Below are positions 588-28,486 of a stretch of DNA of 64,000 nucleotides, in pieces (positions within the stretch are counted from its first letter, which is position 1; every line of letters begins with the position of its first letter). A program made the position numbers and the translations under genes. This DNA is from Takakia lepidozioides (lineage: Eukaryota; Plantae; Bryophyta), in NCBI GenBank assembly GCA_030704615.1, contig CM060732.1:80166001-80230000 (forward strand). The letters are read 5' to 3'. Under the pieces are notes generated by a model. It ran no database searches, was not told the origin of the DNA, and saw nothing but the letters and a program-made list of their open reading frames with translations.

Positions 588-2144
588 TCATCCTGGCACC
601 ATCTCCTCATCCGTCTCACCATGCCACCGAGCTCCAGTATCATCATGCTCGCTCGTGCATGGATTATGACTCAATCCATCTGCATCCCGATTGACAATAC
701 CGGCTCGATGTACCACCTGAAAGTCGTATTCTTGAAGCATAAGTGCCCACCGTGCAAGCTTCCCTGTAAGCTTGTCTGACTTCATCAACCACTTCAGTGG
801 TTAGTGATCCGTGACAAGGGTGAAGAGATTGCCATAGAGGTAGCATCTGAGATGTGTCACTGCCCATACCGCAGCTAGACACTCCCCTTCATATGAACTA
901 TACTTCGCCTCGGCATCATTGTTTGAGTGGCTAGCATATGCCACTACAAACTCTCTTCCCTCATCATCCATCTGTGTGAGCACTGCTCCAATCCCCAGCA
1001 TACTCCAATCCGTATGTAGTTGGAAAGGCTGCCCCCGAATAGGCCGCCTCAAAATAGGTGCAGAAGTCAATCGAGCCTTGAGTTCCTCAAAGGCTTCCTC
1101 CTGCTCCTCCTCCCACTGCCACTCCTGACCCACCTTGGTCAACTTAATAAGAGCCTTTGCAATGCTGCTAAATCCCTTGACAAACCGTCGATAGTAGTTT
1201 GCCAACCCCATGAAAGCACGAACTCTGCTAACATCTATGGAGCGTGGAATGCGTGCAATGGCCTCCACCTTCATCTTTTGAACACCCAATCCTCTAGGGT
1301 ATATCATGTGGCCCAGATACTCAATCTGGTTGTGGAAGAACTTGCACTTCCCAGGGTGCAATTTCAACCCATGCGCTCTCAAGCGCTCAAACACCACCTG
1401 AAGGTGTCTCTCATGCTCCTCAACCGTGGCACTAAAGACGATGATGTCATCAATGTAACACCGGGCAAAGTCTAGCCCCGCGAGAATCCTATCCATAACC
1501 CTCTGAAACTCTGCAGGAGCATTCTTCAACCCAAATGGTAGGAAGCGCCATCGGTACAAGCAATCTTTCCCATGTTGGTCAATTCTCCAGAATGTCGTCT
1601 TTTACTTGTCAGCCTCTTTGATTGGCAACTGGTGGTAACCGGATCGCAAGTCCAATGTGCTAAACACCTTCGCATGTCCAATGGCATCAAAGATTTCCTC
1701 TGGAGTTGGCATGGCATATCTATCGGACTTAGTCTGACGATTCACAGGACGATAGTCCCCATACATCCTTCTTTCTGTCCAATTGCCATAGATATCCTTC
1801 TTAGCTGACATCACCGTTGCCGAGGCATAATCCCCGCCTGACAACTCCACCAATCCAACTTCGAACAACTCCATAGTCCGTGACTGGATCAATGACCTCT
1901 CCATGTCACTATACCGGTAGGGCCTTCGAAAGATTGGCGTGTCATTTGTCAAATCAATACGAAACTCCTGGCCCTTCAAACTCCCCAAATCCTTCAAACC
2001 GAAGGCAAAGCAATTTCTATAAGCCCTTAGAAATCGCTGGATCCTCCATCTCTCTCCTCCGGTGACTGTAGGTCCAACATCTGGTTCCCAATTGTCCTCA
2101 GTGACTGCAACCTTGGGTACATCAGGCTTGGGGGGAGGAGACAA
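588..2144 (-). pseudogene. Reverse transcriptase + RNase H of the Gypsy pol, with in-frame stops
   Basis: ORFs 1602..2144, 801..1559 and 588..788 share one frame: FSTLDLRSGYHQ, PFGLKNAPAEFQR, YIDDIIV, FMGLANYYRRF, VTDH*PLKW, LARWALMLQEYDF. Confidence 0.95.
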
Positions 2145-2539
2145 ATCCTTTGATTGCTAGATAGCAACCTCTTGGGCCTTGTCCGCCCAATCTGACTGTG
2201 GCGTAGCCTCCACTTGCTCTGCCATAACCACCTTGAGAACATCCTCTGGGGAAGAAACATTCTCAACCTCTTCAAAAACATTGGCCACCTTGGCCTCCAA
2301 CTGATCCTCTGTGTGTGGCTCTCCCCACTCCTCATATTGTTGCTTGAGAGATCCAAGGACTCTATCTTTCTGCATCTCATCCCACATCCGCCATGGGTGT
2401 TTGCACCCCATGATCTTGTGCTCGCCCCCACTCACTGCCTCAACCGTCCCGGTTGGCAGAGGGGATACAATACCAAATGGGAGTGCAGAAGTAGTTACCA
2501 CCATCTGCAACCTCCGTTGCTCAGCCATGCACAAGCCAA

Positions 2540-3490
2540 TGACCCATGTCAAGCAATTTAGATCCATTGCTTGACCCAACACATGTCGGCGTGATGCCTT
2601 TGACAGAGCTGGCACAGCTGTAGTGCCCGTGGCAAATCCCATTGCCCGCTCTCGCTCATCTGCATTGGGCTCCACCAATTGCTGTAGCACACTGTCCCAA
2701 ATCAACCCAGGACCATTGTCTCGAAAAGCATGAGACAAGGGAAAGCTCATGAGCGTAGGCAAGGCCGCACGTGGCTGCCCCACTCGATTTACCACTGCTA
2801 GAGGTGGATGGTCATCATGTCGCACCCTCTGTGGTTGCCTCCCTTGGTCCAAAATGCCTTCAAGTGTGAGATTGGGTGGCCGTTGAATGGAATCGTATGC
2901 TCTCTTGAGCAGCTCTGGTGGTGCAAGATTGGTCCACCACAATCAAGGTTGATGCGCTCGTGATCCCACCGTTGCTGCATCCAATAGCACCGCCGATCCA
3001 ATCCAAGACCGCACCTGATGCACACTGGCCATAACCCTAGCCCGAGAGTCCCCCATAAGAGGAACATTCTCCAAGATATAGGCTAGAGGTTGCACTTGCC
3101 TCGTCTGCAAGTCACGCAACACTCTCAACATCTCCCAAAACAAATGCGATCGTGCATCATGCAAGCCGTTCCCATGACCTGCGGGATAGTGTCCTTGGCA
3201 AGGCCATCTAGCTATCACCAAGTCAATGGCATCATGCCGGTCCAAATCATCCGCTCCCAGCAAGGTAATGTCTGCTGGCAAGGCCTTTTGATACCCTTGA
3301 ATTGCTGAGAGAGGCAACAACTCAGGGTACCGGTGTGTGAGCAAGGCGATGTGGCGCATAGAAATCCGCCGAGCTATCTCATCCTTCTCCACATACAAGT
3401 ACTTGCGTACTTTAATCCCAGCTTGCAAAACTCCTGCAAGCCCAGTGCTCATGCCTCCAAACAGGTCTAACAAACAAATCCCTGAGTCAG
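2540..3490 (-). pseudogene. DNMT3-like C5 cytosine DNA methyltransferase domain embedded in the retrotransposon pol
   Basis: Motif I LLDLFGGMSTG, motif II YVEKD, motif IV DLVIARWPCQG, motif VI YILENV, motif VIII AHQP*LWWTNL, motif IX ERERAMGF, motif X RRHVLGQAMD, in canonical order and in frame with PR and RT. Confidence 0.92.
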
Positions 3491-3849
3491 GTGGTTGCCA
3501 GGTAATGGGCACTATATCCAAAGGAGCTAACTGAGGAAGTCCAGGTGATGTCACTGAACTCCCCTCACTCACCAATGGATATGCCTCCTGCCATGCTTGG
3601 TGCACACACTCGTCTGCTACTCGATGCAAATTCCTAATTATACCCCACAGTGGAATATGAACCGACACATGAGGAAGCAAATCAGCCTTGTATGCCAATT
3701 GTTTGTCCTCAACAGGTGGTGGCCTATCATCTGCATGACTATTGCCCTCCAAGAGCTCACCACCCCAAGCCACCACCCCTGAGAATGCAGCCAATGTGGG
3801 CATCATGTTCCTATGATCCACCACTACATTCCCAATAAACCGCACTGGG

Positions 3850-4213
3850 AGCAGTGCACGTCGACCATCCCCTGACTGCCATTCCGGCCTGTAGGATGTC
3901 GTTTCCTCCCAGAAGTCCAAAGTAAAGCCCATCGGGTATAACACAGCCCCACCAACAAGCGCATCACTCGCGTCCATAACAATGGCTTTAGCTCTCATGA
4001 CAGAGCCATCTGTAGGATGATCTAACTGCAATCGAATGAAGAGCTCATGGCGTGTAATCCCTCGTGCCTTCTCTAAACCGCCCAAAGATGTCAAATGAAT
4101 TTGGAAAGGACAAGGCTCCAAATCCGCCTCTGTAAGGCCCAAGCCTGCAATTGCTGCTCTCCCCAACATCAATGGCTGTGCTCCCGAGTCCAACAAGACC
4201 CGCAGTGGCCTAT
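3850..4213 (-). pseudogene. Retropepsin-like aspartic protease of the Gypsy element
   Basis: RVLLDSGAQPLMLG ... DALVGGAVLYPMGFTLDF in ORF 2943..4241. Confidence 0.8.
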
Positions 4214-5338
4214 CACTAGAAGCATTCGTGTCATTTACCACTGGGGTAACGACTCATTTTGAGTCGTAAAAGTCAAAAAACTGGGATCGACTGGAAGTTA
4301 CAACAGACTAGTTACAACAGACGTGGTAGTTGGGTTGGACATCCAATGATTGGAGTGGTAAAGGACGCAGACGCGCGAACAACTGCTCAGCGATTAATGC
4401 GATTAATGCTGAAGAACCACGTGGCGTAACCAGGCGGGCCGCCCGTGTGTCTGACCTTTTGGGCTGACTTTGACTTTTCCCTCCGGATGAGTGGACTGAC
4501 TCACCCGGGGCGCGGTGACACATGGACGCGGACGTGGATGCGGACGTGGATGCCGATGTGGCGGCGCCGCGACGAGCGGCAATGCTGCCGCGTGGCCACG
4601 GGCCCAAGACGCCACATCGCAGTCGGCCACATCACTTGGAGTGCTGCATGTGACGTCGCAACAGCCACTGGCGAAGTCAACTGCACAACTTCCGGCAGAC
4701 GAATCCACGGGGACCACGTGGAGAGTGTGTGGGTCGACGTGGCGTCGTCCCCACGCAATGGCAGTGACGGGTACGACTGCTAGTGGAAAGACGCAGAGTG
4801 CTTGTGCCATCTCGGGACTGCTTTGGCCAACTCCGCTGCCACTGTGCTAGTTGGTTGCACTACAGTAGGAAAGCACGAAAAATGAGCACTTGTAGTGGTT
4901 TGTGTGAGTTTCCAACTGACCTGCATTCTAAGCTGAAAATATGGTTCTGATGCATTCTACTGGTTTTAGTGGTTCACCCATATGCAGGGGGAATTGAGAA
5001 GCAATGATACTGGGCGAGACTGAGAACACAGACCACGATGCATGCACAACATCACGCTAATGAACCAAATAGACGAGGCAACAGGGAGACCAAAGACCAT
5101 CACACATACACATAGAAGGTGGACGGACACGACGACAAGTCAGGAAATGTGATATTACATTCAAATTAGAGACCGTCACGGCACACCTGCATATGAGCAA
5201 GACTAAATGCCAACATACATGGTTGCCGGACATCACTTAAACTGTCATGGCCCAAATGTTCAAAACTGGTAACGTGAGTATCATACACACTTCTATGAGT
5301 ATCATTACACACCCAACAGGGACTACAAACATGAAATG

Positions 5339-8300
5339 TCACTTGATACTTTCACCTTTCCTCATACTCTTCTCTGGCCACAGAGTCACCGTGCCTTTCA
5401 CGTGCGCTAGTGTGGTCTGGGGGGGGGCATCGTCCACATTTGGGCAAGGCAATGTAACACTTGGAAGCATGATCTCGTGGACTTTCACCTTGTACCACCC
5501 GGATCGAATGTCCTTGCAGTGGAACTTGTCAACCCCGGCTATTCCCACCACTTCCGCCTTGGCGGCGGCTGTCTTTGACCGCTTGTCATGGGGGTTCAGG
5601 AGAAACACAGGATCTGATATCTGCAGACACCAACATCAGGGTCCACTCAGCAACAAACATAGCAATGACAGGGTGAAAGTCAAGCGCAGCTGGGCATGGA
5701 AACGATCTTGGTTGCCACAATACTGAATCAGCAGCCAATTCACGGTGTACCAACGTACCTTGAAGCGAAGCTCGTCGCTGAGGGTGGCAACTGAGGAAAG
5801 CTGCCCACGTGTCTTCAACTGCAGCAGCAAAAAGAGGTTTAGTCAGACGGATAAGAATAACATGAACTCTGGTGGTTGCAATGGTATAAACACACCTCCA
5901 CGGAGCAAGCTAACAAACACCCTGCTCAGACCCTAGCACTACAACTTCCTGGCAAAAATAACCCTACTAAAAACCAGCCAGGCAAAGCAAGGAGCCATGA
6001 ATGCATGCCTGGGGAACCACGTCCTGCTGCGATGATGGTGCCGGGGACAGCCCACTCCTCTTGCTCACCTGCAATGAATACACATTGCAACGCTTCAGGA
6101 AGTGTATCCATAAAGGAAACCAACCAAGTAAGTTTGCGGAGAGGGGCTGGGAACAACCATACCTTGGGCGCTGCCTCCTCATGCCGGGGGGGGAATCCGG
6201 AATGCTGCCGCCGTAGCACTATGGTCGTAGGCGCAGGACCCACCTTCTTCACATTCGACCCCACTGCCACTCCCTGTACATGTGGTCCCTGCAAAACATA
6301 TAGTGCCAGCCTTGCGTGAGAGGGCATCCGGGGGGAACAAAACAAACATGGACTTTGGCTTCGATGTCATGTTGCAAACAGTAAGGTTAGTTTCACCTGC
6401 ATGGGCGCAGAAGTACTTCCCCCAACGACCCCATCCTCTCCCACATTCAAGCTGCCAGTCGGGGTCAGCTTCCGCGTGCTTGTGAAGACACGCACATCCT
6501 TGGAGCAAAACAAATCTTGGCAGTAGGGCCAGACTGTTTCTAAAAGGTAGTCTGAATCGGGCCCCTCACTGACATTGCCAGTGACATCAAACGACAATGG
6601 ATGGACCATGTTCAAAGGGGAGTTCCCCCTCCCCTTGTGTGGTGAATCATCCACTAGGAGGGTGTTGGATTCGTTAAATCCAGAAAATTCCGACCACACC
6701 CTCGACAGTCTCTTCTGTAAGTTCTGTACGGCAGGCCCTTTTGTGGGGTGTGGCTCTGTCAAGGGGTCACACTCCTCTTGTGACCACACAAAGAGGGGAG
6801 AACCCTTGACCCCCTGCATGACCACTTTGAAGATGTCTGCAACATTCCCCTTGGAAGCACAGGACCATATCCCAACGTAGAAATACCGGAAGAGAAGGTT
6901 TAAAAACTCGCAGACCTGGGGCCTTGGGAAAACATACTTGTTGGTGGTCAACACCCATGGCCAATGACGCCTCGGGTTGGGCTGAAAGTTAGGAATAGAG
7001 TGGCACAGGATCCCGTTCAGGTCTAGAACAATTAGTTTCGACTTTTCTATGAAAGGAGCTTTTGAAGGGGTGTCACGGGGTCTCACCTCAGTGGGTTGGG
7101 AGACAACAGTCACCCCGGAGGGCAAAGTTTCGGTCCCCCTGCAGCCTGGACCAGGCAAACTACCACCCTCTCCCCCTACAGCTTCCCCTTTTCCCCCATC
7201 ATGAGCAATGACCCCCCATCGTCCATGTCATCCCCACCAACTTGCTGGACCTCTCCCTCTTCAACGAGTGGACCCTGCCCCCCACTGTGAATATCATCAA
7301 CAACAGCCCGGACCTCTGTCACATCCCTACCCACTACAATTACTTCCTCCTTGTCAGGTACAATGGTCGCAGCAGGGGGGTCTTCCATAATGCCACCCGT
7401 CACACCCCCTTTTTGCCCCATCATGAGTTCCACTATCTTCTTCAGTTGTGCTTCCATTCCCCTCTCCCGCTCCGCAGAGAGAGCCGCAAGCCTCTCCAGG
7501 GCCCCGATGCGGGCTGCCATTGAGTTCCCCGCTCCCTACGCATACAAACACCCACCCGTACTGTTAAAAACCAGAAGAAGAGGCCGAATGTGCAGGATTT
7601 CAGGCATTCGGAGATGGCTAGGTTTGGCATAACACCCCTCGTGTACCATGCGTGGGGGCCCCACATACCCACCAAATCTTAGTACAACAACAGATTCATG
7701 AATGGAAACCGGACTTCAAAACATACCTGGCTCAAAACAGACTCTGATGGGGTGCCAGTCGCAGCGTTCTTGCACTCCGCCCCGAGCTCGGACAGTGACG
7801 GGCTCCGCGCTTTGCGTCTTTTCTGTATTTGCCCATCCACACACTGTCAGTACAAAATGCCAGGAGCATATGGACAAAGCACTGCCCTGCATATCACATA
7901 ACAACTAATTCTGCACAAGCAATAAAACCCACTCGTGGGTGTCTCTTCCATCAGAACATGCCACAACGTAAGAGCAATGAGAAGGGGGTGAGGGAGATTA
8001 CCAAACGGGCTGCTTGGCCTGCAACTCCTGCCCGGCCCCAACGCGAGGGGTTCGTGACACAAGCACGCGCTTGCTTCATCCCTTCAGCCTTTGCAAGTCC
8101 ACGAGGGGACTCCCAGTAGGCAACAAGCTTATCCCAATAGGCGGGTTCAGTGTTCATTGGCCTCACACCAGTCTTCGCCCATTTATCTTTCAGTTTTGCT
8201 CTTTCTCCTTTCATTATCTTCCCACATTGCTTCACTATAAAATCACGATTGGCAGGGATAGGTGTGTACTCGTACATTCCATTTATGCCCTCTATTACTG

Positions 8301-10734
8301 TTGACATGGCACTCTGGGACTGCTGGTCAATGTCTTGTACGCTTGAGTCAAGGTAACGCAATGCCAGGCCACGCAAATCACGCTGCCAGTGTTCCTTACC
8401 TTCGCAGCCAGCATTGATGACTCCATTTCCATGCACCTCCACCTTGTGGCGCTTTAGCCCTGCAGCCACCCTTCCCTCTCCATCTCCTTCCCATTGTTTC
8501 ATGGCATGACGTCGTTCCTTCCTCAGCTCTGATGTCCGTTTCCTGCCCCCATGCTCTGGAGCAGCGCCGTCATACGTTGTGGGGGGTGACTGATGTGTGC
8601 CGGAGGGGGGAGGGCCGTATGGAGATGTGGGAGGCCCCCATTGTGACGTGGCAACATCAGGAAGCCAGCGCCACGACCCCGAAGCAGGGGGGGCTCCCCA
8701 TGGTGCACTCTGTTGTGGAGACCATCCGGCAGGGGGTGGGTGCCAAGGTTGGTGTTGGTTGGCATTGTGTGGTGGCTGTGAGTGCTTTGCTGCAGCTTCA
8801 CTCCCCTTCCGCTGCCAAAAACATCCCACACACAAGGTGCATCAGCTGTAGTCCTACTGAACACAACGTCACCAGAGCACAAACCATCCCACAACCACAA
8901 CTATGGATTGGCTGACCTCAAACCCACTCCCCTGCAGCGCAAGTGCCAAAAACTGAAAAGGAGAGGGACAGAATGTCCTCATAACATGTAAGCCCATTCA
9001 TTGGTGAAGAAACAGAATGTGGGCGGGTTCACATCAGTACCACATGAAACTTACCAGGAAACAGAACATCCATCCGGGTTTTGCACATATCCAGTGGACA
9101 TCTATTCACACAATCAGCAAATGGCTGTATGGCGGAGCCCAGCAACGGAGCCCCAAAAGGCCTAAAGACTCTCAATGTTGGTAAACACAGGTGCAGACAC
9201 AATTCAATTGAAAGGATATTGCAGACCTAGCCTCGTTGGAGTTATCAACGCATATAGCAAATGCGTACTCCAACGCAGGTGCAATGACGTGACAAAGCAA
9301 CATTTCCTTGACCTAAAAACTAGTCCCTCTGCACACAGTGGTAGACCTGAAGGTTTTTCCACGATGTCCTCCCCCATGACACAAATTGAAAACATGTTCA
9401 GGGATGTTTTCTGCCTAACTTCATTTTCTGCCCAATCAGATCTCCTCTACGCTGATGATGTTGCCCTTTTGGCACAATCCCCGGTCTTTCTGCAACGCCA
9501 TATCAAAATTTTGGAACAGTTCTGCAAAGACTATGGGATGCAAGTCAATCTTAGCAAGACCAAGATCATGGTCTTCAATGGCCAGGCTGATCGTAGATTC
9601 ATCTTCAACCAGCAGGAAATTGAGATTGTCAAATCATACCGGTACCTAGGTCTGGTTATCCACTCCCCCAAGTTTCACTTTGCAGCCACTGCCTTGGACA
9701 GATTGACTAAAGGTAAGGCGGCCTCCGTCCGCCTTCACGCCAAATGCAAGCAAATACATCTGCGGCATCCCCCGACCAAAAAGTGGTTGTTTGACACCGT
9801 CGTCAGCCCTGCTACCATCAATGGTTGTGAGTTCTGGGCACCTGGTGTCCCTGTCTCCTGGTGGGAAAAGAATTTGGAACCATTACAGTCATCTTTTCTC
9901 CAAGCAATGCTTGGCGCCAGGAGCACAACTCCATCTCAGATCCTAGGTGCAGAGTTCGCATGTGTACCATTGCAATCCGAGGCACAGTTCAGGCTTACAA
10001 TCTTTCTCCATAGATTGCAGGCCCTTCCACCCAAAGGGCTAGTGGCAAGGGCCCTCACAACATCTATGAGGCTCAAAGCTGCAGGTTTCGGGAACTCCTG
10101 GTATGCTCGAGTGTTTATTGAAACGTAACGGACTTTCTACTGCTTTCCTATTACCAATGAACCCACATGAGGTGGACATCACATCCAGACATGACCGCAA
10201 CAGACTCATTCGGAGAGAGCTTATGGAATTACATGTCAAGAGAACTTGGATGCTACCCAATCTCACAACAAAGCTCCACTTCTATCGAGAGACATTCTTG
10301 GTGCTCCGCGATGATAGAATCTTCAGACCAAATTACCTTTCAGCACCCTTACCTCCTTCCCTCTTGAGGGCATTGGGGCGGTTCAGGGTGGGTTCCCACA
10401 ACCTACGGATAGAGACTGGCAGATGGGAAAACCTGCAACGGGAGGACCGCCTATGTCCAGCTTGCATAGGGCGCAGCAAGGAAATTGAAACTGAAGAACA
10501 CTTCTTCTTCTACTGCCCTGTATACTACGACATCCGTTTGAACAACTTTGTGGATATGTGCATCCCAGTTTCAGTTTCAGGAGAACTCAACGCCCAGAAA
10601 ACAAGAACACAAGTAGGGGTAGAACTCACCTCATGCGCAGCGGTTTTGTGCCGTTTGCGCACCTTTTGGAGAGACTCTGCAGATGGAGGTGCAATTTCCT
10701 CCGAACTGTCCTCCACCTCATCGTCGTGGGCCAT
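5339..10734 (-). CDS. CACTA TnpA-like (Ptta/En/Spm- and TNP1-like) multi-exon gene containing an FCP1/NIF phosphatase domain; at least one frameshift
   Basis: Probable first exon MAHDDEVEDS..AAHE|gtgagt (10734..10630). ORF 7951..8835 reads YWDKLVAYWESP..KAEGMKQAR..NPSRWGRAG. Terminal exon 5339..5620 reads AEVVGIAG..FHCKDIRSGWYKVKVHEI..LPCP..VTLWPEK. GT-AG bounded small exons lie between. Confidence 0.7.
6480..7045 (-). CDS. FCP1/SCP-like (NIF) HAD-superfamily phosphatase domain
   Basis: KLIVLDLNGILCH, FPRPQVCEFL..LF..FYVGIWSCA, LFVWSQEEC, KRLSRVW, NTLLVDDSPHK in ORF 6367..7158. Confidence 0.85.
9240..9440 (-). mobile_element. Inverted fragment of a second LINE family (same family as 22610..23330)
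   Basis: The reverse complement GAAAATGAAGTTAGGCAGAAAACATCCCTGAACATG..CATGGGGGAGGACATC closely matches 22771..22840. Confidence 0.7.
9441..10540 (+). mobile_element. Non-LTR retrotransposon (LINE) fragment: RT C-terminal half and C-terminal Zn-finger region, frameshifted
   Basis: LLYADDVALLA, VNLSKTKIMVF, YRYLGL, then RFRVGSHNLRIETGRW..RLCPAC..ETEEHFFFYCPVYYDIR. Confidence 0.9.
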
Positions 10735-12722
10735 GCTATACTGTCAAAATCCAAACTCGAAGACCGCCCACCGCCTCTCCTTCCCTCTCGCACCGACGCC
10801 CATCTGTACCGGATTCAGTCCGAGCCAGGCGGGGGCTCCTTCGCACCGCGGGGCTGGAATGTGCAGAAGTGGGAGGAGGTGATGCTGCCTCGGCGGTCGA
10901 GCGCTTCTTACTAGGCGTGGACATAGACCATGACAAAGATGAAGACGAGCGAGGACATAGACCATGGACCAAGACAAAGACGAGCGAGAAGACCAAGACA
11001 TGCAAAGGAGGAAAGAAGGACAAGGAGGGGAGTGTGATCACACACCCCCCCGATCTGTAGTGAAGATCCGGCCGTTGTTGATTTCAAATATGAACACGTG
11101 TCGTGCATCCGACACTATGGCCTTTTTCGACTTTGAGACGTTAAACCCTAAACCACTTACAATCCCCAGACAACTAGATGTAGTGATTCACACAACTGAC
11201 ATGGATCCGTTAACTTTTTTCGTTCAAAATTAGGCGAAGGAAAACACACTGCAATGATGCCGTGTATGGCTCCGCTTTACATGCATTCTTGGAGAAAATG
11301 CGCATGATGTGTGAGAAGTGAACACAGTGCTCTGCCAAATGATTCAGCAAAAACAAACTCAACTGTAGTGGTTCTCCCATCGCAGAGAAGGGTCCATTCG
11401 ACACCCATCGCAACCATGCCAGGTTGAGGTCTCACACACACACACTACACACCGAGAATTTGCGAACCCACATCAGCTGGGAGAACATGGAAAACAACCG
11501 TGGATCACATGCAAGCATGAATGAGAAATGGGTTTATGTTACATGGGAGATTTTGGTGTACGCAGCGCGACATGCAACTCTGCTACATACTCCATAAGGC
11601 TGTGTCCAAGACACAAGTGGACAGGGGGAGGCCGGTGAGTCTGTACCACAATGGTAATCATACAGCAGGAGGGTACTGCTGCCTCCCACAACGTGCAAAA
11701 GCCGCCGGCTGCAGGATGCTAGGCATGCGAACTCGGGCACACACACCTCCTCCTCTCCACCCACTGCCGTCCCAACCAGTGCAAAACAACCGTGCATGCA
11801 TTGACTGCCCTCTGGCTTTCTCTCCAGCATTTGGGGTCTGCGATCTGCTCACGTAAGTGTCTTTGAATGCGACGATCAAAGGATCCGGTCACTTGCAGTT
11901 GCCGTCTCAAGGGCAGCATTGCAAGAATCAGAAATTAAGTAAGAAAGATGGTGGAAGAAGCTGCAAACAGCAAATGAGTGAAGTGGCAGGGCGATGCTCC
12001 ATTTTTAACATGCTCCCCTTCCCGCCATGGTGATAGAGCCACACAAAATGGAACTCCCTTCCCGCCAACGGTGCAATTTCACGGCAACGGAACGGGATTG
12101 TCCGCCGAAACGTGATTTGGAGATGGCCTAAGACAAGTGGCGCAGGTTCTGGCCTTGTAGTCAGGTTGTTCACACTTCAATGCACACATTTCATACACAT
12201 TCAACCATATGCCCAAGATCACAACGTCTCAATCATCATGAAAATTGAAATTCCACGTACGTCCTCCGATTCCTCACACACACACGAACTGTAGAGACAG
12301 GTCGTTTTCCAGGATGTCGTTGTTTGAGTCGATTTTGGTCATTTTTCTCAGTGTCTTGTTGAAAAGATTCTAGTTATGATGGGAAGCATCGTGATGGCTT
12401 TTTAATGGTTTGCTGTTGAGTGTAACTTTTCATCATGTTGTGGGAATCTACCGGTTGGTATAAAATGTCAACTGTCTTCTCTGCCAAAGGATGTGCGGCT
12501 GAACCTTTCAAAATTGAGATTGCAGGAGGAGGGAATTGACGGTAGTGAAATGGGAGTGGCAGAGCCAAATTGAGGAAATCTCTGCAAAGGAGAATCCGGC
12601 CCCCTGCAACGGCGTGCACAAACAGCATTGAAGAGGCTCCCCAACAAAAATGAGTTCCCCTCGCCCATGCGGAGGACTTCCAATTAATCACCCCTGACAT
12701 AACAGAACACCGAGATGACAGG

Positions 12723-15700
12723 TTGTGGGAAAGAGAAGTGGCACGTGCCCGAGCCCTTGGGCTTTCAAGGATGCCATGCCCATGTGAACGTTGTTTGGGC
12801 ACTACAAGTAGATCTGAGGACGATGTGCGCACACATCTCCTTCACCACAAAAGACATGAAGCATTTCGGGTGTGGATTGGAGATGGACCTGCAGACGAAG
12901 ACGATGAGGAGTGGGCACAATTGGACAATGCACACCCCCGAGGGAGCCATACAGACAGGCCAGACGAGGACTATGTCATGGGCGCAGGACATGAACCAGG
13001 CATGGACGGAGGGTGGAGATTACTCGAATGTTGCAGGAAGCATTCCACATCATGGACGATGCTGAAGAGGGGGACGGCGCTGCGACAACTGGGGATGGTG
13101 ATGACGCAGGAAATGAAGGCATTCACGTGGGGGAAGGCGTGGAAGGAGGTGGAGATGGAGAATTGAATTCTGCACACATGACACCTAGAAGAAGCATGTG
13201 TGCCACTGTACGAGGGATGCAAATCCACAAAGCTTGCTGCCACCATGCTGTTGATGAACCTGTGCACAACCCACGGTGTCTCAGACCATTTTGTGGACGA
13301 GTTGTTCTCTTTGCTTCGGCTGAACTTGCTTCCACAACCAAATGAAATGCCAAAAAGCTGTCACATGGCCAACCAAATGATTGGGAAGCTCGGCCTCAAC
13401 TACGTGAAAATACATGCATGTCCAAAAGGACATGTACTTTTCAGAAGAGAGTACAAGGATGCTATGGAGTGCCCCAAATGCGGTGCAGCCCGATACCATG
13501 ATGTGGGCAGGTTACAACAGCCAGCCAAGGTGTTGAGGCACTTTCCCCTTATCCCCCGTCTATTACGAATGTACAAATGCAAGACCATTAGTGAGCTCAT
13601 GACTTGGCATTCCAGGAATGCCTCAAACGATGGTTTGGTAAGGCATGTCCCAGATTCCCTTGCATGGAAGCATATAGATGCAACTTGGCCCGATTTTGCC
13701 GAGGACCCACGCAATGTGCGATTGGCTGTATCTACGGATGGAGTAAACCCATACGGATCAAAGAGTTGCACATGGTCCACATGGCCCGTGCAGTTGGTGG
13801 CATACAACCTGCCACCATGGTTGACAACAAAGAAATTCTTTGTCATGTTGTCTCTCTTGATTCCAGGCAAGGAGTCCGTGACAAATGCAAACATAGATGT
13901 GTATTTGCAACCATTGATTGAAGAGCTACAGGAACTATGGATTGGAGTTGAAGCTTACGACATTTTGAAACCAGTAGGGCAACGGAGTTTCACCCTCCGT
14001 GCCATACTCATGTGGTCAATCCACGATTTCCCCGCATATGGCCTTGTTGCGGGTTGCAAGACGAAGGGCTACAAAGGGTGCCCCATTTGTGGGCCCTATG
14101 TGGATTCACGGCACTCAAAGCCACTAGGGAAGACAATATACATGGGGCATCGACGTTACCTTGCAAGAAACCACCCCTACCGACGAGCAGGAAGGCACTT
14201 CAATGGATGTGTTGAAAAGAGAATGGCACCAAATGCTGTGACACCGGAGGAGACATTGCAATTTGCAAAGGAGAAAGAGGCGTTCATGGAGATTGGAGGG
14301 AGAGACGGAAGTAGTGCGGATCCAGCCATGGAGCACGGGGTGAAGCGCCGGACAATCCTTTGGGATTTGCCATACTGGAAGGTGCATGAATCCCCCCCCC
14401 CCCCATTCACTCACTTTCTTTCACATTGTGCTTCCTGGAATTACCTTTACTGTCAGGAGTCCTTCCACCAACTCCTAAGTCAGTGTAACTACTATGCAGT
14501 AGATGTTGAAGTCGTACACCTCACTGTGGAGAGGATCGTGGAGTTGTTGAAAGCAGAATGTAGTAACATGGACAACTTCTGCCACATATTCTACTTTTTT
14601 TGCCCATAGAACTTGGTCTCATGGGAGGACATTTGGCATTTCAGAACCTCTTGCAGCGGTACCTCCTGGACCCCATGCATTGTGAGAAGAACTTCTGCGA
14701 GAACATTCTGAAGACTATCTTTGGGGAGAAGGATACGATAAACGTACGAAAGGACATGGAGATTGAAGGGATACGGTCACATCTGTGGCTAAGGCCTGAT
14801 CCAAATAGACCAGGCAAAGTGCTCATGCCAGCAGCATCATACGTCCTGACCAAATCAGAGCAAGAGGATTTTTTGAAGACATTGGGAGCCATGAAAGTGC
14901 CAACCGGATTCTCGGGTGCTTTCCAAAAGCATGCCATAAACAAGAAATGGTCGGGGATGAAGTCACATGATCTACACGTGATGATGCAACAGATTTTGCC
15001 AGTGTGCATTCGGGGTACGATGGCGCCAGGTCCTCGAACAGCCATAATGCGTGTAAGTCGAGTGTTTAGGAAGATTTGTGCGAAGGTGTGGGATCCGAGG
15101 GACATTACATCGTTGCATGAGGATGTGGCTATGACCCTATGTTTGCTGGAGAAAGAATTCCCTCCATCATTCTTTGACGTCATGACGCACTTGCTAGTGC
15201 ATCTTGTAGAGGAGTTGCATGTGTGTGGGCCCGTAGCCAGCCGGTGGATGTACCCCATGGAGAGGTACATGAAGGATCTGAAGGGGTATGTACGCAACAT
15301 GGCACGGCCAGAGGGGAGTATGGCGGAGGGCTACATCCGCGACGAAGCCCTGGGCTTCATGACAGAGTATATGTCTTCATTTGATGCAATACAACGACGG
15401 GTGTGGGACGAGAACGAGGAAGAAGGAGTTGTAGGCGAGGTCCTAGAAGGTGGTGGAACAAAAGCGTGCCATGAGCCCGCGCCTTCGGGATGTGGCACAT
15501 GATTATGTGCTGAACAACACAACAACCATGACACCATGGAGACAGTGGGTGCCAACTTACATCCCTCCTGTGCTATTCTTAATGGTCTTTGTATGCTGGA
15601 ATTACATATATATTGTCACAAGTCATTCCGGCCACTATGGGAGTGGGATCGTGTACTAACATCGTGTACTAACAGTGTGCTTCAGACGACTACAGAGGGT

Positions 15701-16697
15701 GTTTCGTAGATCATGGTTGTTGCTTGCAAGTGATTATGAAGTAGGGTTGCATCACTACAGTGTGCTGAAAGGACACACACTCTGCATTGTGGCATGCATG
15801 TACAGCACGGTGTTGGTCAGGGGACTGAGTTGCAGCTTCTTCATTTGGTTTCTCCAGAAAGTACGCAGCGGAGAAGGTCCGCCTGAAATGGAACGGAGTG
15901 CAATTTGCAAAAGCATGGCGGAGGGCGGTCGTAGGCGCAAATCCCCGGTGGAGTACCCCACAACCAATGGAGGAGCTGCAGCCCTTTACAGTGTGGGTCA
16001 GATCTGCAATTGCAGTGTACGCATCAAGAGAACAGGACCTAGATGAGGGCATGGTGAGTCTGTCATTCTCCCCAGGGTTGATTGCCACTTCGTACCGGTC
16101 AATTGAAAGCATATGGCAATCACTATAGAGTAGACGATGCCAACACCAGCCTCCTGGTGACTTATGACAGCGGAGTGGCATCATTTTTTTGAACAAGAAA
16201 GTAGGAGCTGTGCACGAGATCAGAATCCAATTTCATGCCATGTGCAATATGTAGGAGTGATCAAAGAGATCTTTAAACTAGACTATGGTCTTGTGAAGCC
16301 AATTCTATTCTGTTGTTCTTGGGTAAAAGCCAATATGGTAGGAGAGAATGCCACCATGAAACGGGATGAGTACGGGTTCCTCCTGCTGATTTCAGAAAAA
16401 TGCTAACCACAAGATGAAGAGCCATTCATCTTCTCATCGCAAGTTGAGCAAGTTTTCTTTTCAGATGATACCCATGCGCCGGGAATGGAAGGTGGTTCTC
16501 ACAAGACCCGGGCCAAACGAGTCGTGGCGACGTCCATGATCTGGACCTAGGGGAGAATGCCGACCACGGGTCTGAGGGAACCACGAAATCTACCAGATAC
16601 GGCCGAACCAGTCTCTTTGGAAGGAGCAGTTACCTTTAATGAGGAAGACATTCCAGGGTTGGTAATTACCGCAAGGCAAATTGCAGATGTGGAGTGA
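12723..16697 (+). pseudogene. CACTA Tnp2 transposase (transposase-associated, Transposase_21, DUF4218-like and DUF4216-like regions) with introns and frameshifts
   Basis: MPCPCERC..VRTHLL; HACPKGHVLF..CPKCGAARY; DPRNVRLAVSTDGVNPYG; intron 14382..14644 joins LPYWK|NLLQRYLLDPMHCEKN; FFDVMTHLLVHL..WMYPMERYMKDLKGYVRN..PEGSMAEGY; YVGVIKEIFKLDYG..LFCCSWV. Confidence 0.93.
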
Positions 16698-17554
16698 AGG
16701 GGAAGATTATTTGGATATAGATAGTGAGCCCAGCTGAATCTCAGTGTCCATTAAGCAGCAGCTCATAGACGAGAGCTATGCTAAGGACTCTTACTGTCCT
16801 TAGAACCCATTTTGTACAGTCCTGCAAGCGCGCAAGGGCGAGACAGTTAATAGTATCGATAATGTCCTGGTATGTGGTCCGTACTGTCTTGTGAACAAAC
16901 CTTTTTTTGTTTGCCAATATTGTTCTCTGACATGTGAAGAGAGGATCGTCTTCATGTACGGGAAGTAGACGTGAATGTGTGCATGCATTTTCTGGCCCAG
17001 CTGCATGCTTTCCAGGGACAAAGACCAGTCTCCAAAGGAGCAGGACCGAACGACACCTTTTTGTGCTTCCCCTTGCTTTCCTTCTCACCGTTGTTGCATT
17101 CTCCTACCTGCCCAACAGCAGCACTCTCGAAGCAATAGCATGACATATGTTGCAACATGGTCTTCTTCACCAGCGAATGAGCTTTTTTGCTATATGTACT
17201 GCCGCGTCCACATTAACGTTGATCCCTGCAATCACTTGGCAAGACACCCCAGAGCCGCAAATCCAGCAACCACCACAAACATATCTAACTGATTGTAGTG
17301 ACACGGGAATAGCTCACTTGTAGAGGAATTGAACCTCGAGCCAAATGAATGGCTCTGCCTCTTGTAGCACAAGTGCGATGCAAAAACAAGGAGAGTATAA
17401 AATGAAGAAGCACTTACGAGGTCCCCATCCCTCGGATGGGCTCCCACTTGTGCTCTGGAACTGTGCAGGCCTGACTAGCACCAAATTGCATGAATCCTAA
17501 GCCTGAATGTCAAATGCAGGTTTATGTCGCGATGCAGCACGCCATCATCTAACC

Positions 17555-17760
17555 TGTAGTTTCCAGTTTCACTGGTGTCACAACTGCCTTCAAGTCAACA
17601 TCAAAATTAAGTCCACCTATGCACAAATCGCAGAATGTCTCATGACACCATCTGCCGCCGCTGGTTTGGCATGATATGATTGTAATTCACAACCTTAATG
17701 AACGCTTTCAGCCTTGACCTCTTTGCGATCTTCTTCTGTGACTGCTTCTTCATAATTTAT
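17555..17760 (-). pseudogene. RPL27: Captured fragment of 60S ribosomal protein L27 (copy 1)
   Basis: The minus strand reads MKKQSQKKIAKRSRLKAFIKVVNYNHIMP and, after an intron-like gap, NFDVDLKAVVTPVKLETT. Confidence 0.8.
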
Positions 17761-17995
17761 GAAAGGGAAAAGCAGCTACACATCAAATTCTTGCAAGTAC
17801 AGGGGGGTATTCATGCCTCCTTGGAGAAAGAGTGCCATAAACACAGACACATCCTTAAATGTAAAAATGGAGAAGCGAACGTCTGGTGGCAATAACTGCC
17901 TAAACCAGAATTATACTCCATTCCAGCGCACATGTAAAGGGTCGGATGATAACTCGGAATCCCAGTTGGAGATAATGAGACGAATACATGACTAT

Positions 17996-18230
17996 CTTGC
18001 GAGTTTCAACTTTCTTGGAGGTAGTTTCCAGTTTCTCTGGTGTCACAACTGCCTTCAAGCTGGGTTTAGATGAATTAAGTCCCACTCGCAAATGCAGAAT
18101 GTCTCCCCTCATCTGCGTGGGCAAAATGGGGTTTGGCATGATATGATTGTAGTTCACAAACCAAAGGGCATATTCTTCAGCCTTGACGTCTTTGCGATCT
18201 TCTTCTGTGACGCCTTCTGCATAACTTGTG
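17996..18230 (-). pseudogene. RPL27: Captured fragment of 60S ribosomal protein L27 (copy 2)
   Basis: MQKASQKKIAKTSRLK..VNYNHIMP..LKAVVTPEKLETTSKKVETRK; direct repeat of copy 1. Confidence 0.75.
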
Positions 18231-19040
18231 AAATGGAAAAGCAGCTACACATCAAATTATTGCAATGCCACTCAATGGCACTATGAACGTTTCGAGCATG
18301 CTGTCAGAAAACTAGACGGGCAAAAACCCAATTCAGCAGCCTCACCTTGCGTGGATACTTGGGAATTGATGCCAGAAGGGCATGCCCGTATGCGCGCTCC
18401 ATCGGCCTCTATCCAGCACATTCTGTAAATGATGAATGACCAAGACCCCGATGTCACACCGTTCTGAGAAGCCACTACGCGCGCTCACAGTATACGAAGG
18501 CCTTGCCGTGTCAGGATTTCCATTCCCACGTCCCGCCATGTCCGACGCAGCACTTGCATCCTTGTCTCTGCCAGGTGGAGGCAGCACGTATTAAAATATC
18601 TATTCCCCCAAGGCCACATTTTGTTTACCTCTTTTTGTGAAAGCCACGTCAGCAAATGTGCTGCCGAGTCATGGGTGCAATGAATGCGCAGTGGTTCATG
18701 GAGTCGTTGAGTCGACTACATATTCACTTTAATGAATAAATATCTTTATTCCATTAATCGAATTAGGAAAGAAAATTTGTAGTCGCATGTGCAGTAATTA
18801 CAACCACTTGTAATTTTGGCTTTTTCAAATTTTATGTATTTACGCAATTCGTAAAATAGCCCGGAATTCTGCTACGACTCCGGAGTCGTTGACCCTACTT
18901 CTGTCCGCCGTCTGAAATGCCCCCGTGGGCCCACATTGTCTGTTTCGACTCTCCAGTAGTCCCGTTTACTACCAAGTGGTTCCCGGAGTGGTCGCGGACA
19001 TGCAGTCGAATCGGAAAAGACACGAATGCTTCTAGTGTAT

Positions 19041-19750
19041 ACCTCCTCCCGGCTAGGCCACCCAACTGAAATACATCATCCTGATTGTCCACCAGGACTA
19101 CCCCAGAAGTCACCATACTACACTCAATGGCTGGTCTAGCTGGCAACTCCTGCAACCTTGCAGCTGCCGCTTGCCATGGCGCAGCTGTGGCTGTTTTCAC
19201 CCTTGAATCCAAGGCATCCATGCACTGCACCTGATCCGCTATCCCCGCAGATAGTGCTGATGCATCACCACTCTCACAGAGTGCAGCTGCCAGTCTAAAC
19301 ACTGCAGCTGGCCGCATCCCGGGCATTGCAATTGTCGTGGCAGAAAACAATGGAGCTTGGCAAATTGCCGTAGCCGCCCCCAACAATGTACTGGCTGCAC
19401 CTTGCTTTGCAGTATCACCTACTGGCATTTCCTGAGCCATACCAACTCTCCCCAATGACACTCGTGGCTCTACTTCTGACACACTTGGGCGAGCGGGTGC
19501 CATCGATGGCATAGTTGGCACTGTCTTAGCCAATGTGAAAGATTGTGGAAGCCTTGTCTGCCAACTTGCTTCCTCTTTGTGGATCAAAATCCACATCCGC
19601 TCCTCTGGCTCAGGAACAGCTGTAGAGTCCACATGCAATGGTCCTGCAAGTGCGGCTCCACACATGAAGCCCATACCCATCTGGTCTTCCCTAGGCATAG
19701 GAGGTTGTGTAGGTGGGGCTTGAACCTCAAGCCTTGGAGCTGGCGCAACA
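19041..19750 (-). pseudogene. Gag-to-protease linker region of the Gypsy element, on the far side of the CACTA insertion
   Basis: ORF 18895..19698 reads into the right CACTA TIR; its frame is continuous with the protease once the CACTA element is removed. Confidence 0.75.
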
Positions 19751-20349
19751 TGAGTAGGGTGAATACAAATGATATGGAATTTATTTCATCATGCCCAAGT
19801 AGGACTGCTTGGTGGCATATTGTGATTCTGACAAATTGCAGGTTTGTCTTTATGCCTTGGCTGATGCATGACCTGCCATAATTAATGGCTGAAAAGGTAA
19901 GATGCTGCAACCTGTGGGTCATATCCAAGATGTATGTGTGAAAACGTGTCTTAATAGGGCAGGCTGGACCATGGTACCTTGCCCTTTGCATGACCTCAGC
20001 ATTTTTATGCTCCTTCAATACATGACCTGCTGGTAAGGTATGTGTGCAGGCTGAACCAAGAGGCCTTGCAACCTGCACAAGGGCAACAATATCTTATCTT
20101 GTCCCACACATGAACACATGATTCATTGGCGAAGATGGCCGGATCTCGGGTGTTCAAGATGCTTGCATCCCCTACATGAAAACCCCGCCCTCCCACCCTA
20201 TTTTATCATGATTGATTGGGTGATGTCAACTCATGGAAGCTATGACAAGAATGGAAATGTTAGATGGTGCCCTGTTTTGGGTTGTTTGTCTTTAATTGAC
20301 AATGACCCTAGTGGGTCTTGTCCATGTCTTGACATGACATGAATATCTC

Positions 20350-25770: not shown

Positions 25771-28486
25771 GTGGGTTTGCATGACAGGTGCCAGCTTATG
25801 GGGAAAGAGAAGAAGTCCCCTGCCCCAAAGAAAGGGGCGGACAATCCGTTTGCTCTGCCGGCACGTGTGACACGCCAGGGCGTCTCACGGTTAACCAGCC
25901 TTGTCGACAGCCGCAGCCGGAGGGCTCGTCCGCCCCCTGAGGTCAGTACCCCCCCTCTTGTCCACATCTTGGATACGCCAGGGGCTGGCTCAGCCAGCTC
26001 TCCTATTCGAGAGGTTGTTGCTGAGCCGGATGCTCAGTTGAGCACACCCCCGGCCACCAAGACGGGTGAAATGTACCTTAGCAAGCATATCACCCGTTCG
26101 GGGGGCCCGGTATGGGCAACTTTTGGATGTCACCCCCATAGCAACCCCTTCCTCCGCAGCAAAGGCTGTATTTGCCAAGGCCCAACGTCAGGCTCAAGGG
26201 CCTTTGAAAGCCTCCATTGCTAGCCCATTGTTGTCGATGAGGGAGGAGGAGACGAGGAGGGCCAATGAAGTGGCCAAGATAGCGAAGCGCCCGAAGAAGT
26301 CAAGCCGGGTGAGGGCTTCTACCCTGATACGCATTTGGGGGGGGGGGGAGGAGGTATGGGCCGGTTTGGAGCGGCCTAGCCGATCAGCGACACCGCCCCT
26401 TGAGCCTGAGCGGTCAGCAAAGAAGGGCCTGGACTACGGGGCGCCGCCGCCGGCTATGCTCCACATCTGGAATCTACTTCCAGTGGCGCTCCGGGAGGGG
26501 ATAGAGCGGGCACATCCGGCAACGGGGACTCCTGCCACATCGGGTGACACCGGGGGCGAGTCGGACAAGCTTACAAAGGTACAACTGTCGCACCTTGTTC
26601 CATGTTTTATCCTTTCCTTTGCATGCATGATTTTCTTTGTTGTTTGTTTCTTTTTTGAATTTGGAGGGGTTATTTGTCTTCGGGAGGCAGCAACATGGTT
26701 GATCTCATTGGTGCAGTCCAGTGGGGTTGCCAATGAGGGAGAGCACGTGGTGTTCATGAAGGACCCGAACACCAAAGGTAAGAAGAAGAGGCCTCGACCT
26801 CCCGAGATCCATTTTACCATCAATGAGGGGGCTGCCGAAGAGAGAGAGAGAGAAGGGAGAGGGAGAAAGAGAGAGAGGAAGTAGCGGGGAAGGGGAAGGA
26901 GATGGTTGTGGAGAAGGGGAAGGAAAAGAAGAAGAAGAAGTCCCATGGAGAGGAAGGGATGAGGTGGATTCGATGCAACGTATGTGTGTAATTCACTAAT
27001 TGTTTGGGGGGGGGGGGGGGGTGGGGGTGCATAGGTATCGTGGGATGCACTCATTGCGGGAGAGACTGATGCCGCAAACAAGCCCAAATTTGACCGGGCA
27101 CGCGAAGCAATAACAGTCCGCCTTGACAAGCACGAATCCATACACAAGTGGGGCGCTGGCGGATCCAAGGGTTTTATCTTGTGATTTGTAAGTCGTACTT
27201 CCCTATGGATTTTGTTATGTCTTCTTTCTGGCTCCATCATCACGAAGAACTGACTTTAATTTGTGGCATGTGTAGCAACGCGCGTTTGAGAGGAAGCCAT
27301 CTCCGGTAGAGTACAACTACGCCAAGAAGCATGGTTGGCAATCCCTCATGAAGAACATGGCCAACACGGAGGGGGATGAGTGCACTACAGGGCACTAGTA
27401 TGGATGAGGTTGGGGGTCATGGCTAGGGATTGGATGAGAGATTTGTGGGACTTAGGGAAACGCCACCTCATTTAGGTGCTCTGGCAAAGGGCGCGGAGTC
27501 ATCACGCTCACCAGATAGCTCTGAGTCCTCCACTGAGGATGAGGATGAGGATGACTAGTCCTAGTCCATGTAGGTCCCAGGGTCAGCCTACTGAACCCTT
27601 GTGAGTTTTTCAGCTCATTTCCTATAAATATATTTCCATCTTTCCATCTTCCATCTTAATCATGTGTCGCACCGTCTCACTTCGATTCATGCTTGCTTCA
27701 ATTGTGTATCTGCTAAATCAGAGAAATGGAACTGTAAGGTCTCCCATCCCAAAAAACAAAACAGGCAAAAAAACAAAAAACCACCCCAATTCACCCCAAA
27801 ATCAACCCCAAACCCCCCCCCCCCACCAGGCTGCCCTCGCGACTGCATGACGTCGCCAATGGCAATGTTTGGGCAGGGGTTTGCAAGCCGCGACGGTCGG
27901 GCGTCGCAAAACCCATTTGTGGGCGGCAATGCCCAACACCCCTTGCAACATGTTTTTTTGGTCCGGGGGTCGCAGAGCCCGCCACCCTTCCTACGCCACG
28001 TTTTTTTTTTTTGATAAATATAAAAAACAAAGCGACGCCAAAGCGTCGCAAAAACCCACGCCCGGGCGTGGCGGAGCTTGACTCCTGTTCCTGCTGTTTT
28101 TTTTGCCACGCCCAATAGTCGCTTGCAGCGACACACTGGCGTCGCTTGGCATACCACCGGCTTACGCCACGTGTTTTGGGTTTTATGATGGGACTCCCGG
28201 GCAGACGTCGGCTGGAGGGCCGCGACGGCGAGATGTCGCTCGAAGGAGGCCCCTGCCATCGGTGCGGACGGCCTGAAAAACGACGTCCGGCAGTCGCGGG
28301 AGTTGGGGCGGGGGCTCGCGACCCCATACGTCGCATTTTTGCGACGTCATTTTGGCGATGCCCATGCGACGGCCGGGCGACAGCCGGGCGTCGCAAATTC
28401 TGCACCCGCCCCCTGCTCGAAATCGGCGTTTTCCCGACGCTGCGACGTGGCTCGGGCGTCGCAAATGCCCCCATTTTCCTGTAGTG
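25771..28486 (+). mobile_element. Right part of a second CACTA element with a TnpA-like gene remnant; left end not found
   Basis: Terminus ..CCATTTTCCTGTAGTG at 28486 (reverse complement CACTACAGGAAAATGG). Dense GCGAC/GTCGC subterminal repeats at 27838..28470. Remnant exons WDALIAG..FDRAREA..HKWGAGGSKGF|intron|QRAFERKPSPVE at 27034..27330. Confidence 0.75.

Follow-up and report, generated by a model that had tools for sequence, protein, structure and literature searches.

What does a phosphatase-type domain do in the second gene of a plant transposon? The question is raised by a stretch of 64,000 nucleotides from the bryophyte Takakia lepidozioides (GCA_030704615.1, contig CM060732.1, positions 80,166,001–80,230,000, forward strand), which is called the window here and to which all coordinates refer. 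The window holds a real CACTA element, and the accessory gene of this element, located on the minus strand, carries an old, selected domain of the NIF/FCP1-type HAD fold. An earlier note on this DNA had described such a gene and had linked its domain to RNA polymerase II.

The CACTA element and its accessory gene

The element possesses the inverted ends, the 3-bp target site duplication (TSD) and the Tnp2/TnpD transposase of the CACTA (En/Spm) group. Left and right terminal inverted repeats (TIRs) are 23 bp long, match at 22 of the 23 bases and are flanked on both sides by the TSD TAT. When 10,839 CACT[AG]..[CT]AGTG pairs from the whole window were tested, 4214/19037 was the only pair with 16 of 16 complementary bases and identical 3-bp flanks, and the frame of the interrupted Ty3-type retrotransposon is in register across the insertion site. 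A first candidate for the left end, CACTAC at 4858, was rejected as it had no partner end. With regard to subterminal repeats, a few 8-mers are common to both ends (e.g., ACGACTC/GAGTCGT), and no dense array was found in the terminal 700 bp. The accessory gene (minus strand) and the TnpD gene (plus strand) are arranged head-to-head with about 1.9 kb between them. In this assembly TnpD contains several frame breaks and stops, part of which may be small assembly errors. The location of the gene within a CACTA element, as claimed before, is therefore confirmed by TIRs, TSD and a TnpD gene on the opposite strand.

Reading of the splice signals gives an accessory gene of eight exons encoding a protein of about 899 amino acids. 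All introns are in phase 0 and have AG acceptors, and six of the donors are GT and one is GC. The extent formerly given for the gene (5339..8835) covers its 3' part; the gene starts further upstream, with a predicted exon 1 at 10734–10630. The donor of exon 2 at 8002 agrees with a joint in a contig from sequencing run X12 and with a phase-0 donor in the metagenome locus L006. Exon 2 is likely the DNA-binding part of the protein, as predicted from its sequence, and the basic KRRKARSP stretch of exon 3 is a possible nuclear signal. The exon 4 layout of coil, linker and NIF domain is also present in L006 and in the proteins P0175 and P0182, and exon 8 shows 37% identity (E = 3e-12) to an exon downstream of a NIF-like domain in another metagenome locus, L008. 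One X1 contig spans exon 3 and continues into a LINE (long interspersed nuclear element) fragment of intron 1 (9050–9211) at a depth equal to the rest of the gene. Since it does so at the depth of the gene, the LINE insertion is common to the X1 sample.

The domain encoded by exon 4 matches PF03031 over the whole profile (1–160 of 160) with E = 1.7e-13 and 51 bits (cut-off 21.8) and is not interrupted by any stop, as the earlier note had stated; the minus-strand stretch 7227–6367 is open as it stands in the window. Its motifs are DLNGIL, RP, IWSCA and LLVDDSPHK, and residues D14 (nucleophile Asp), S67 (motif II), K117 (motif III) and D138/D139 (motif IV) are retained. An AlphaFold2 model based on a 91-row alignment reached a predicted local distance difference test (pLDDT) score of 91.8. 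SCP2 and SCP1 were its best structural matches (Z of about 20, root-mean-square deviation 2.4–2.5, 163–167 residues), Tim50 followed with a Z of 18.8, and SCP2, SCP1, Tim50, CTDNEP1, UBLCP1 and Fcp1 together covered a Z range of 16–20.5. Protein searches by word index returned only distant DxNG proteins (7 and 16 matches). Among the 91 aligned rows, Asp14 is conserved in 85, Asn16 in 88, Lys117 in 91, Asp138 in 90 and Asp139 in 85, and DxNG, which is what a host subfamily normally carries at this motif, is no transposon-specific decay.

Integrity of the reading frame and copies within the species

Contigs from eight sequencing runs (X1, X2, X5, X6, X7, X8, X11, X12) were aligned to the locus; X2 and X5 are from one sample, X1 may be the source of the window itself and X11 and X12 are taken as RNA, which is a guess only. 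In the window, the domain is joined to the upstream coiled-coil frame by a single shift in the G-run at 7212–7217, as had been noticed before. An extra base in this run is present at full depth in every covering contig, i.e., in all five covering runs (X1, X2, X5, X6, X7) from four samples and four studies; the contigs of X8, X11 and X12 do not cover the position. The shift is therefore real in the window sequence but most likely an assembly slip, and because all covering contigs hold the extra base, exon 4 (7535–6397) is most likely one open exon of 380 codons with the domain in frame. Other small differences are two extra bases at 4737 in X1, X2 and X5, which suggest small assembly errors in the window generally, and a single additional base at 5418 that is confined to X1.

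The domain is not confined to this copy, a doubt that attached to the earlier description. Contigs with 84–89% identity over the domain occur in X5, X7, X11 and X12, and more distant relatives are described below. A contig of 1567 nt from X5 (84% identity) contains the 3' half of the NIF domain, exon 7 and exon 8 in this order, with diverged introns. In a contig from X12 the match to exon 2 ends exactly at 8002 and resumes at 7537, and the gap between these points is about 113 nt as compared with 464 nt in the window and about 115 nt expected after splicing. A gap of this size is the expected product of the removal of introns 2 and 3 in a paralog, and the X12 contig is probably RNA from which these introns had been spliced out. 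No RNA data set was listed for this exact element copy. Contig depths at the locus and at diverged copies were about 1,660–2,200 versus 15–38 in X5 and about 120–130 versus 8 in X2; tens of near-identical copies would fit these figures, which were not used as evidence as contig depth is no copy number.

Distant relatives and selection

Among 1.84 billion representatives 1,648 matches were obtained, of which the 150 listed underlie the results reported here. The metagenome loci L006 to L009 are four of 291 pattern matches and were fetched with an alignment of the proteins P0045, P0082 and P0156. Trees were calculated from 77 and from 38 chosen rows of about 170, and a rougher tree from all 177 extracted domains. 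In the 77-row tree as well as in the rough tree, the window domain groups with P0045 (whose cluster has 27 members from many contigs), P0082 and P0156, and in the 77-row tree the window and six of the seven relatives form one side of a branch with a support of 98/81. L009 was left out of the trees and of the selection analysis on account of stops and frame breaks.

The metagenome relatives have about 30% protein identity to the window and a similar exon layout. L006 shows an exon end like that of window exon 2 with the same donor phase, a small RRKRQRSP exon resembling exon 3, and then an exon with coil, linker and NIF-like domain, and in L008 a NIF-like domain is followed by a terminal exon homologous to exon 8. 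For the three pairs among L006–L008, ratios of nonsynonymous to synonymous substitutions (dN/dS; method of Nei and Gojobori) of 0.15, 0.16 and 0.26 were obtained, and synonymous sites are saturated when compared with the window. Identities within the domain exceed those within the linker (0.64 versus 0.44, 0.47 versus 0.17 and 0.46 versus 0.13). The NIF-like domain of the relatives is under purifying selection.

The nucleophile Asp is replaced by Asn in all seven relatives (P0045, P0082, P0156, L006–L009), and the second Asp of motif IV is also gone. The window's DLNG corresponds to N[VI]HG in these relatives, its WS mostly to WG, and its DD to DH, ES or DY. Because catalytic residues have been lost, the seven relatives cannot be HAD enzymes by established chemistry, and we infer that the NVHG lineage is fully dead as an enzyme.

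The window domain has at most 39% identity to any row of the tree, host genes of Sphagnum and Ceratodon included, and its placement with the clade of named host genes from these two genera was rejected (approximately unbiased test, p-AU 0.002), this group having been picked after seeing a tree. No transposon Pfam domains were found in the 69 scanned of 83 relatives longer than 420 amino acids, which says little for a database with few spliced plant genes.

Next to the transposon clade, fast-evolving DxNG proteins were observed (P0069, P0035, P0027, P0051, P0063, P0080 and P0124; P0030, P0049 and P0141). DxNG-type NIF proteins are also encoded on the viral contigs L001–L005, some of which are very large, with 26–32% identity to the window domain, and the first Atlas match was a mostly giant-virus cluster. 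A giant-virus origin finds no support at such identities, and the viral loci are not near the window in the tree, for which four of the five were used, L005 matching like L004. Scans of viral and of metagenome contigs with the window protein gave no match.

Identity of the carrier gene

The earlier note had called exon 2 Ptta/En-Spm-like and the last exon TNP1-like. For exon 2 a weak similarity to PF03004 (Ptta/En/Spm) does exist, but with E = 0.033–0.088 and 13–15 bits it stays below the cut-off of 28.7 bits. A single-sequence model of exon 2 was all-helical with a pLDDT of 46; this low-confidence model gave no fold match, and a protein search with exon 2 matched none of 1,336 candidates. For exon 8 no transposon Pfam family was matched, so that the TNP1-like label stays unverified, and neither exon 8 nor its L008 homologue had a clear PDB match; Atlas and PDB searches with exon 8 produced leads only. 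In its residue pattern, exon 8 may resemble the C-terminal domains of TnpA. The carrier gene is likely a TnpA, as judged from its position and from the sub-threshold Pfam match.

Catalytic capacity and role of the domain

The nucleophile of SCP1 is Asp96, with Asp98 assisting it, and the residues F106, V118, L155, Y158 and R178 form the pocket for the prolines of the C-terminal domain (CTD) of RNA polymerase II (PMC7281111). In a profile alignment the window has Asn at the position of Asp98, and Pro, Ser and Asn at those of F106, L155 and Y158, which are three of the five pocket positions; V118 and R178 were not mapped. A DxDx(T/V) motif with its general-acid Asp was not found, the window having DLNGI, and an SCP1-type CTD pocket appears to be absent at the mapped positions. 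DxDxT is thus lacking, as the earlier note had seen, but DLNG, taken there for a variant of it, is the standard motif of a host subfamily. The connection then drawn to CTD dephosphorylation is not supported, in view of the missing motif, the three replaced pocket residues and the loss of the nucleophile Asp in conserved relatives.

We consider it about evenly balanced whether the NIF/HAD fold carried by this second, likely TnpA-type, CACTA gene serves in binding or recruiting and not as a polymerase CTD phosphatase. A binding role is preferred because the relatives have lost catalysis yet the domain stays under purifying selection. The domain would go back to a single capture from the host DxNG subfamily by an ancestral element, probably in bryophytes. 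With about 900 amino acids, the protein would bind the element ends via the helical region of exon 2 and oligomerize through its coiled coil. Its NIF domain, tethered by a long and flexible linker, would bind a nuclear protein of the host, phosphorylated or not, for example a chromatin or transcription factor. Such binding might help activation of the element or assembly of the transposition complex, and by analogy with TnpA an anti-silencing role is plausible. The window lineage, with its nucleophile Asp kept and the general-acid Asp replaced by Asn, may retain a weak or trapping-type chemistry.

Several observations weigh against this interpretation. Four catalytic-type residues are kept in the window (D14, S67, K117 and D138/D139) and in nearly all host DxNG proteins, so that the DxNG subfamily may consist of enzymes whose chemistry is unusual. 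A mixture model lowers the support for the joint clade to an SH-aLRT (approximate likelihood ratio test) value of 80, and the branches are long. The contigs of the relatives, 1.6–2.8 kb in length, are too short to include TnpD or TIRs, so that their CACTA status is drawn from the shared gene layout; P0045, P0082 and P0156 are known as proteins only, and there are stops in L006 and L009. Homology to TnpA is weak, with a Pfam match below the cut-off, an unusable exon-2 model and an unmatched exon 8, and TnpA-like proteins are called limited to flowering plants in bioRxiv 10.64898/2026.08.24.746577 and PMC13547354. Within the species, the domain is broken in an X6 contig by two inserted bases at 6722, one copy in X5 is without the first half of the domain, and the X11/X12 paralog has a net loss of 40 bases in exon 2, shifting its frame with respect to the window. 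No single transcript contig connects exon 2 with the NIF domain, and that X11 and X12 are RNA was guessed.

A bolder form of the binding proposal, which we hold tentatively and think doubtful, is that bryophyte CACTA elements encode a TnpA-type regulator which took up a HAD phosphatase fold long ago and turned it stepwise into a pseudo-enzyme reader, capturing a phosphorylated chromatin or transcription factor of the host at the element ends against silencing.

It is unlikely, though a real contender, that the window domain is an active Mg-dependent phosphatase whose substrate is not the CTD but a chromatin protein, the transposase or the end of a nucleic acid, and that only the NVHG lineage is a pseudo-enzyme. 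The window and 85–91 of the 91 aligned relatives have the nucleophile Asp, the Ser/Thr of motif II, the Lys of motif III and the Asp-Asp of motif IV, and of the solved sequences it is the phosphatase UBLCP1 that comes nearest to the family profile (E = 1e-16). Set against this, Asn occupies the general-acid position in 88 of the 91 rows, a functional study of the DxNG subfamily was not found in the part of the literature screened, and the sister lineage shows that the need of the element for the domain outlives catalysis.

Quite improbable, in our judgment, is a purely structural or oligomerization module of the accessory protein or of the transposition complex, acting without a host partner. 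Tim50 is a non-catalytic binder with the HAD/FCP fold. As a close structural match it is in line with such a module, as is the fold that was kept in seven of seven relatives while the active site was lost, and TnpA has been modelled in complexes with TnpD (PMC13547354). The linker, long and variable on both sides of the domain, agrees better with a domain that is tethered and reaches out, however, and the window lineage still keeps phosphate- and metal-binding residues.

A phosphatase for, or binder of, the polymerase CTD that modulates transcription seems very improbable, even though SCP1 and SCP2 are the top structural matches and TnpA-type proteins activate transcription (bioRxiv 10.64898/2026.08.24.746577), for besides the missing DxDxT and the Pro, Ser and Asn in the pocket, CTDNEP1, UBLCP1 and Tim50 put the same fold to other jobs. 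Least probable of all and largely refuted is a neutral, decaying passenger of the Pack-CACTA type, as the broken copies (the X6 insertion, the X5 deletion copy, the stops in L006 and L009) that might suggest it are expected in any transposon family, while dN/dS values of 0.15–0.26, saturated synonymous divergence, a layout kept at about 30% protein identity and the want of a close host parent (at most 39% identity to any row, those of Sphagnum and Ceratodon among them) speak against a decaying near-copy of a host gene, which the earlier note had also considered.

Other features of the window

The features of the locus are compiled in Table 1. Within the element, a possible third gene (16800–18590) gave no informative Pfam match. 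The Ty3-type retrotransposon interrupted by the element (801–4210 and 19041–19785, minus strand) has a C-5 cytosine DNA methylase domain beside its protease (PF00145, E = 2.6e-9). Algae are known to have retrotransposons that bear a methyltransferase. A CACTAC-type end at 28486 (27887–28486), with four TCGCAAA repeats inside that are like the CCVTCGCAAA motif bound by Arabidopsis TnpA-Spm1, probably belongs to a second, non-autonomous CACTA element. Between 20362 and 25707 lies a degenerate palindrome of about 5.3 kb with arms that are 85–98% complementary and a LINE-like sequence near its centre, related to 9049–9428. Host genes are represented by a WD40 protein, which we take to be like UTP18, and by pieces of an ABC-F-like protein (ABC_tran match), within 32002–33919 and 45300–54600.

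Table 1. Features of the CACTA element and its accessory gene in the window (exons given as predicted were read from the nucleotide sequence only).
Feature	Position	Strand	Remarks
Whole CACTA element, 14,824 bp	4214..19037		inserted in Ty3-type retrotransposon open reading frame
Left TSD and TIR	4211..4236	+	TSD TAT 4211–4213; TIR 4214–4236 starting CACTAG
Right TIR and TSD	19015..19040	-	TIR 19015–19037; TSD TAT 19038–19040
Exon 1, 35 aa	10630..10734	-	predicted; ATG start, GT donor
Exon 2, 270 aa	8002..8811	-	P/W/Q-rich region, then helical region with weak Ptta/En/Spm similarity
Exon 3, 39 aa	7727..7843	-	basic KRRKARSP stretch; L006 has a small exon like it
Exon 4, 380 codons with the extra base	6397..7535	-	NIF domain preceded by a likely coiled coil and an acidic linker
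G6 run lacking one base in the window	7212..7217	-	most likely assembly error
NIF/FCP1-type HAD domain, DxNG subfamily	6490..7038	-	DLNG at 7023–7012
Exon 5, 42 aa	6163..6288	-	predicted
Exon 6, 20 aa	6009..6068	-	predicted; GC donor
Exon 7, 20 aa	5759..5818	-	conserved island 5754–5833 in the 84% copy
Exon 8, 93 aa and stop	5339..5620	-	small terminal domain, GVDKFH motif
LINE fragment in intron 1	9050..10620	+	ends approximate; RVT_1 E = 6.3e-11; contig depth about 10 times higher from 9153
TnpD transposase gene	12654..16700	+	PF13963 E = 9.3e-6; PF02992 E = 2.8e-75; PF13960 E = 1e-37; PF13952 E = 0.059
Possible third, spliced gene	16800..18590	-	within the element, converging on TnpD; 469-bp internal duplication

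Relation to known systems and meaning

The nearest systems for comparison are the SPM2, 5, 6 and 9 elements of Arabidopsis with separate TnpD and TnpA genes. As described in PMC13547354, they share with the window element the CACTA ends, the 3-bp TSD, a TnpD of the Tnp2 type and a second gene of several exons that encodes a helical Ptta/En/Spm-like region (the likeness being weak here) and a small terminal domain. The genes are head-to-head in the window element as opposed to head-to-tail in Arabidopsis, and the window accessory gene has the NIF/HAD domain inserted. TnpA consists of tandem helix-turn-helix domains and a C-terminal, NDX-B-like beta-barrel (bioRxiv 10.64898/2026.08.24.746577; PMC13547354), and in Arabidopsis it binds clustered end motifs, activates transcription and recruits or needs host demethylases (bioRxiv 10.64898/2026.08.24.746577). 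The word phosphatase is found in neither of the two main texts, and their supplements could hold bryophyte accessory domains; nor was it found in the accessible portion of the review PMC13317346. No report of a CACTA element combined with a phosphatase domain was found in the literature searched, which covered few subscription papers and did not extend to Repbase.

KAONASHI, or VANC-ULP1, of the VANDAL Mutator-like elements is alike in that a host enzyme domain is fused to an accessory gene and has long been conserved, and differs in the superfamily, with ULP1 captured in Mutator-like elements, and in the cargo, a SUMO protease as against a HAD phosphatase fold (PMC13317346). Set against VANC-ULP1, the loss of catalysis in one lineage is a feature of the window family. 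Host DxNG NIF proteins (clusters of Sphagnum KAH8970694.1 and Ceratodon KAG0621609.1), often named automatically as TIM50 or FCP1-homology protein, agree with the window in DxNG, RP, W[ST], K and NTLLxDDSPxK; they differ from it in the low identity noted above, in the position of the window outside the named moss clade and in the location of the window domain in a transposon gene. With SCP1/CTDSP1, Fcp1, CTDNEP1, UBLCP1 and Tim50 the window domain has the HAD/FCP fold in common, whereas it is without DxDxT, has the SCP1 pocket residues replaced and shows 15–25% identity. Pack-CACTA elements carry a recent host fragment that is free of purifying selection, and the window family does not conform to this type.

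It is through accessory proteins that plant DNA transposons are known to undo the silencing imposed by the host, and few adopted host domains have been documented among them, namely ULP1 in VANC/KAONASHI and the NDX-like barrel in TnpA. A cargo of phosphatase fold that is kept by selection across distant elements, and that exists in an enzyme-like as well as a dead version, directs attention to protein phosphorylation as a front of this conflict that has not been examined, and the two versions lend themselves to a paired comparison. If the carrier gene is a TnpA, then TnpA extends beyond flowering plants and the head-to-head layout is added to its known arrangements. A pseudo-enzyme reader, if true, would be an undescribed anti-silencing module of a transposon and would offer a handle on the unstudied DxNG subfamily of plant phosphatases.

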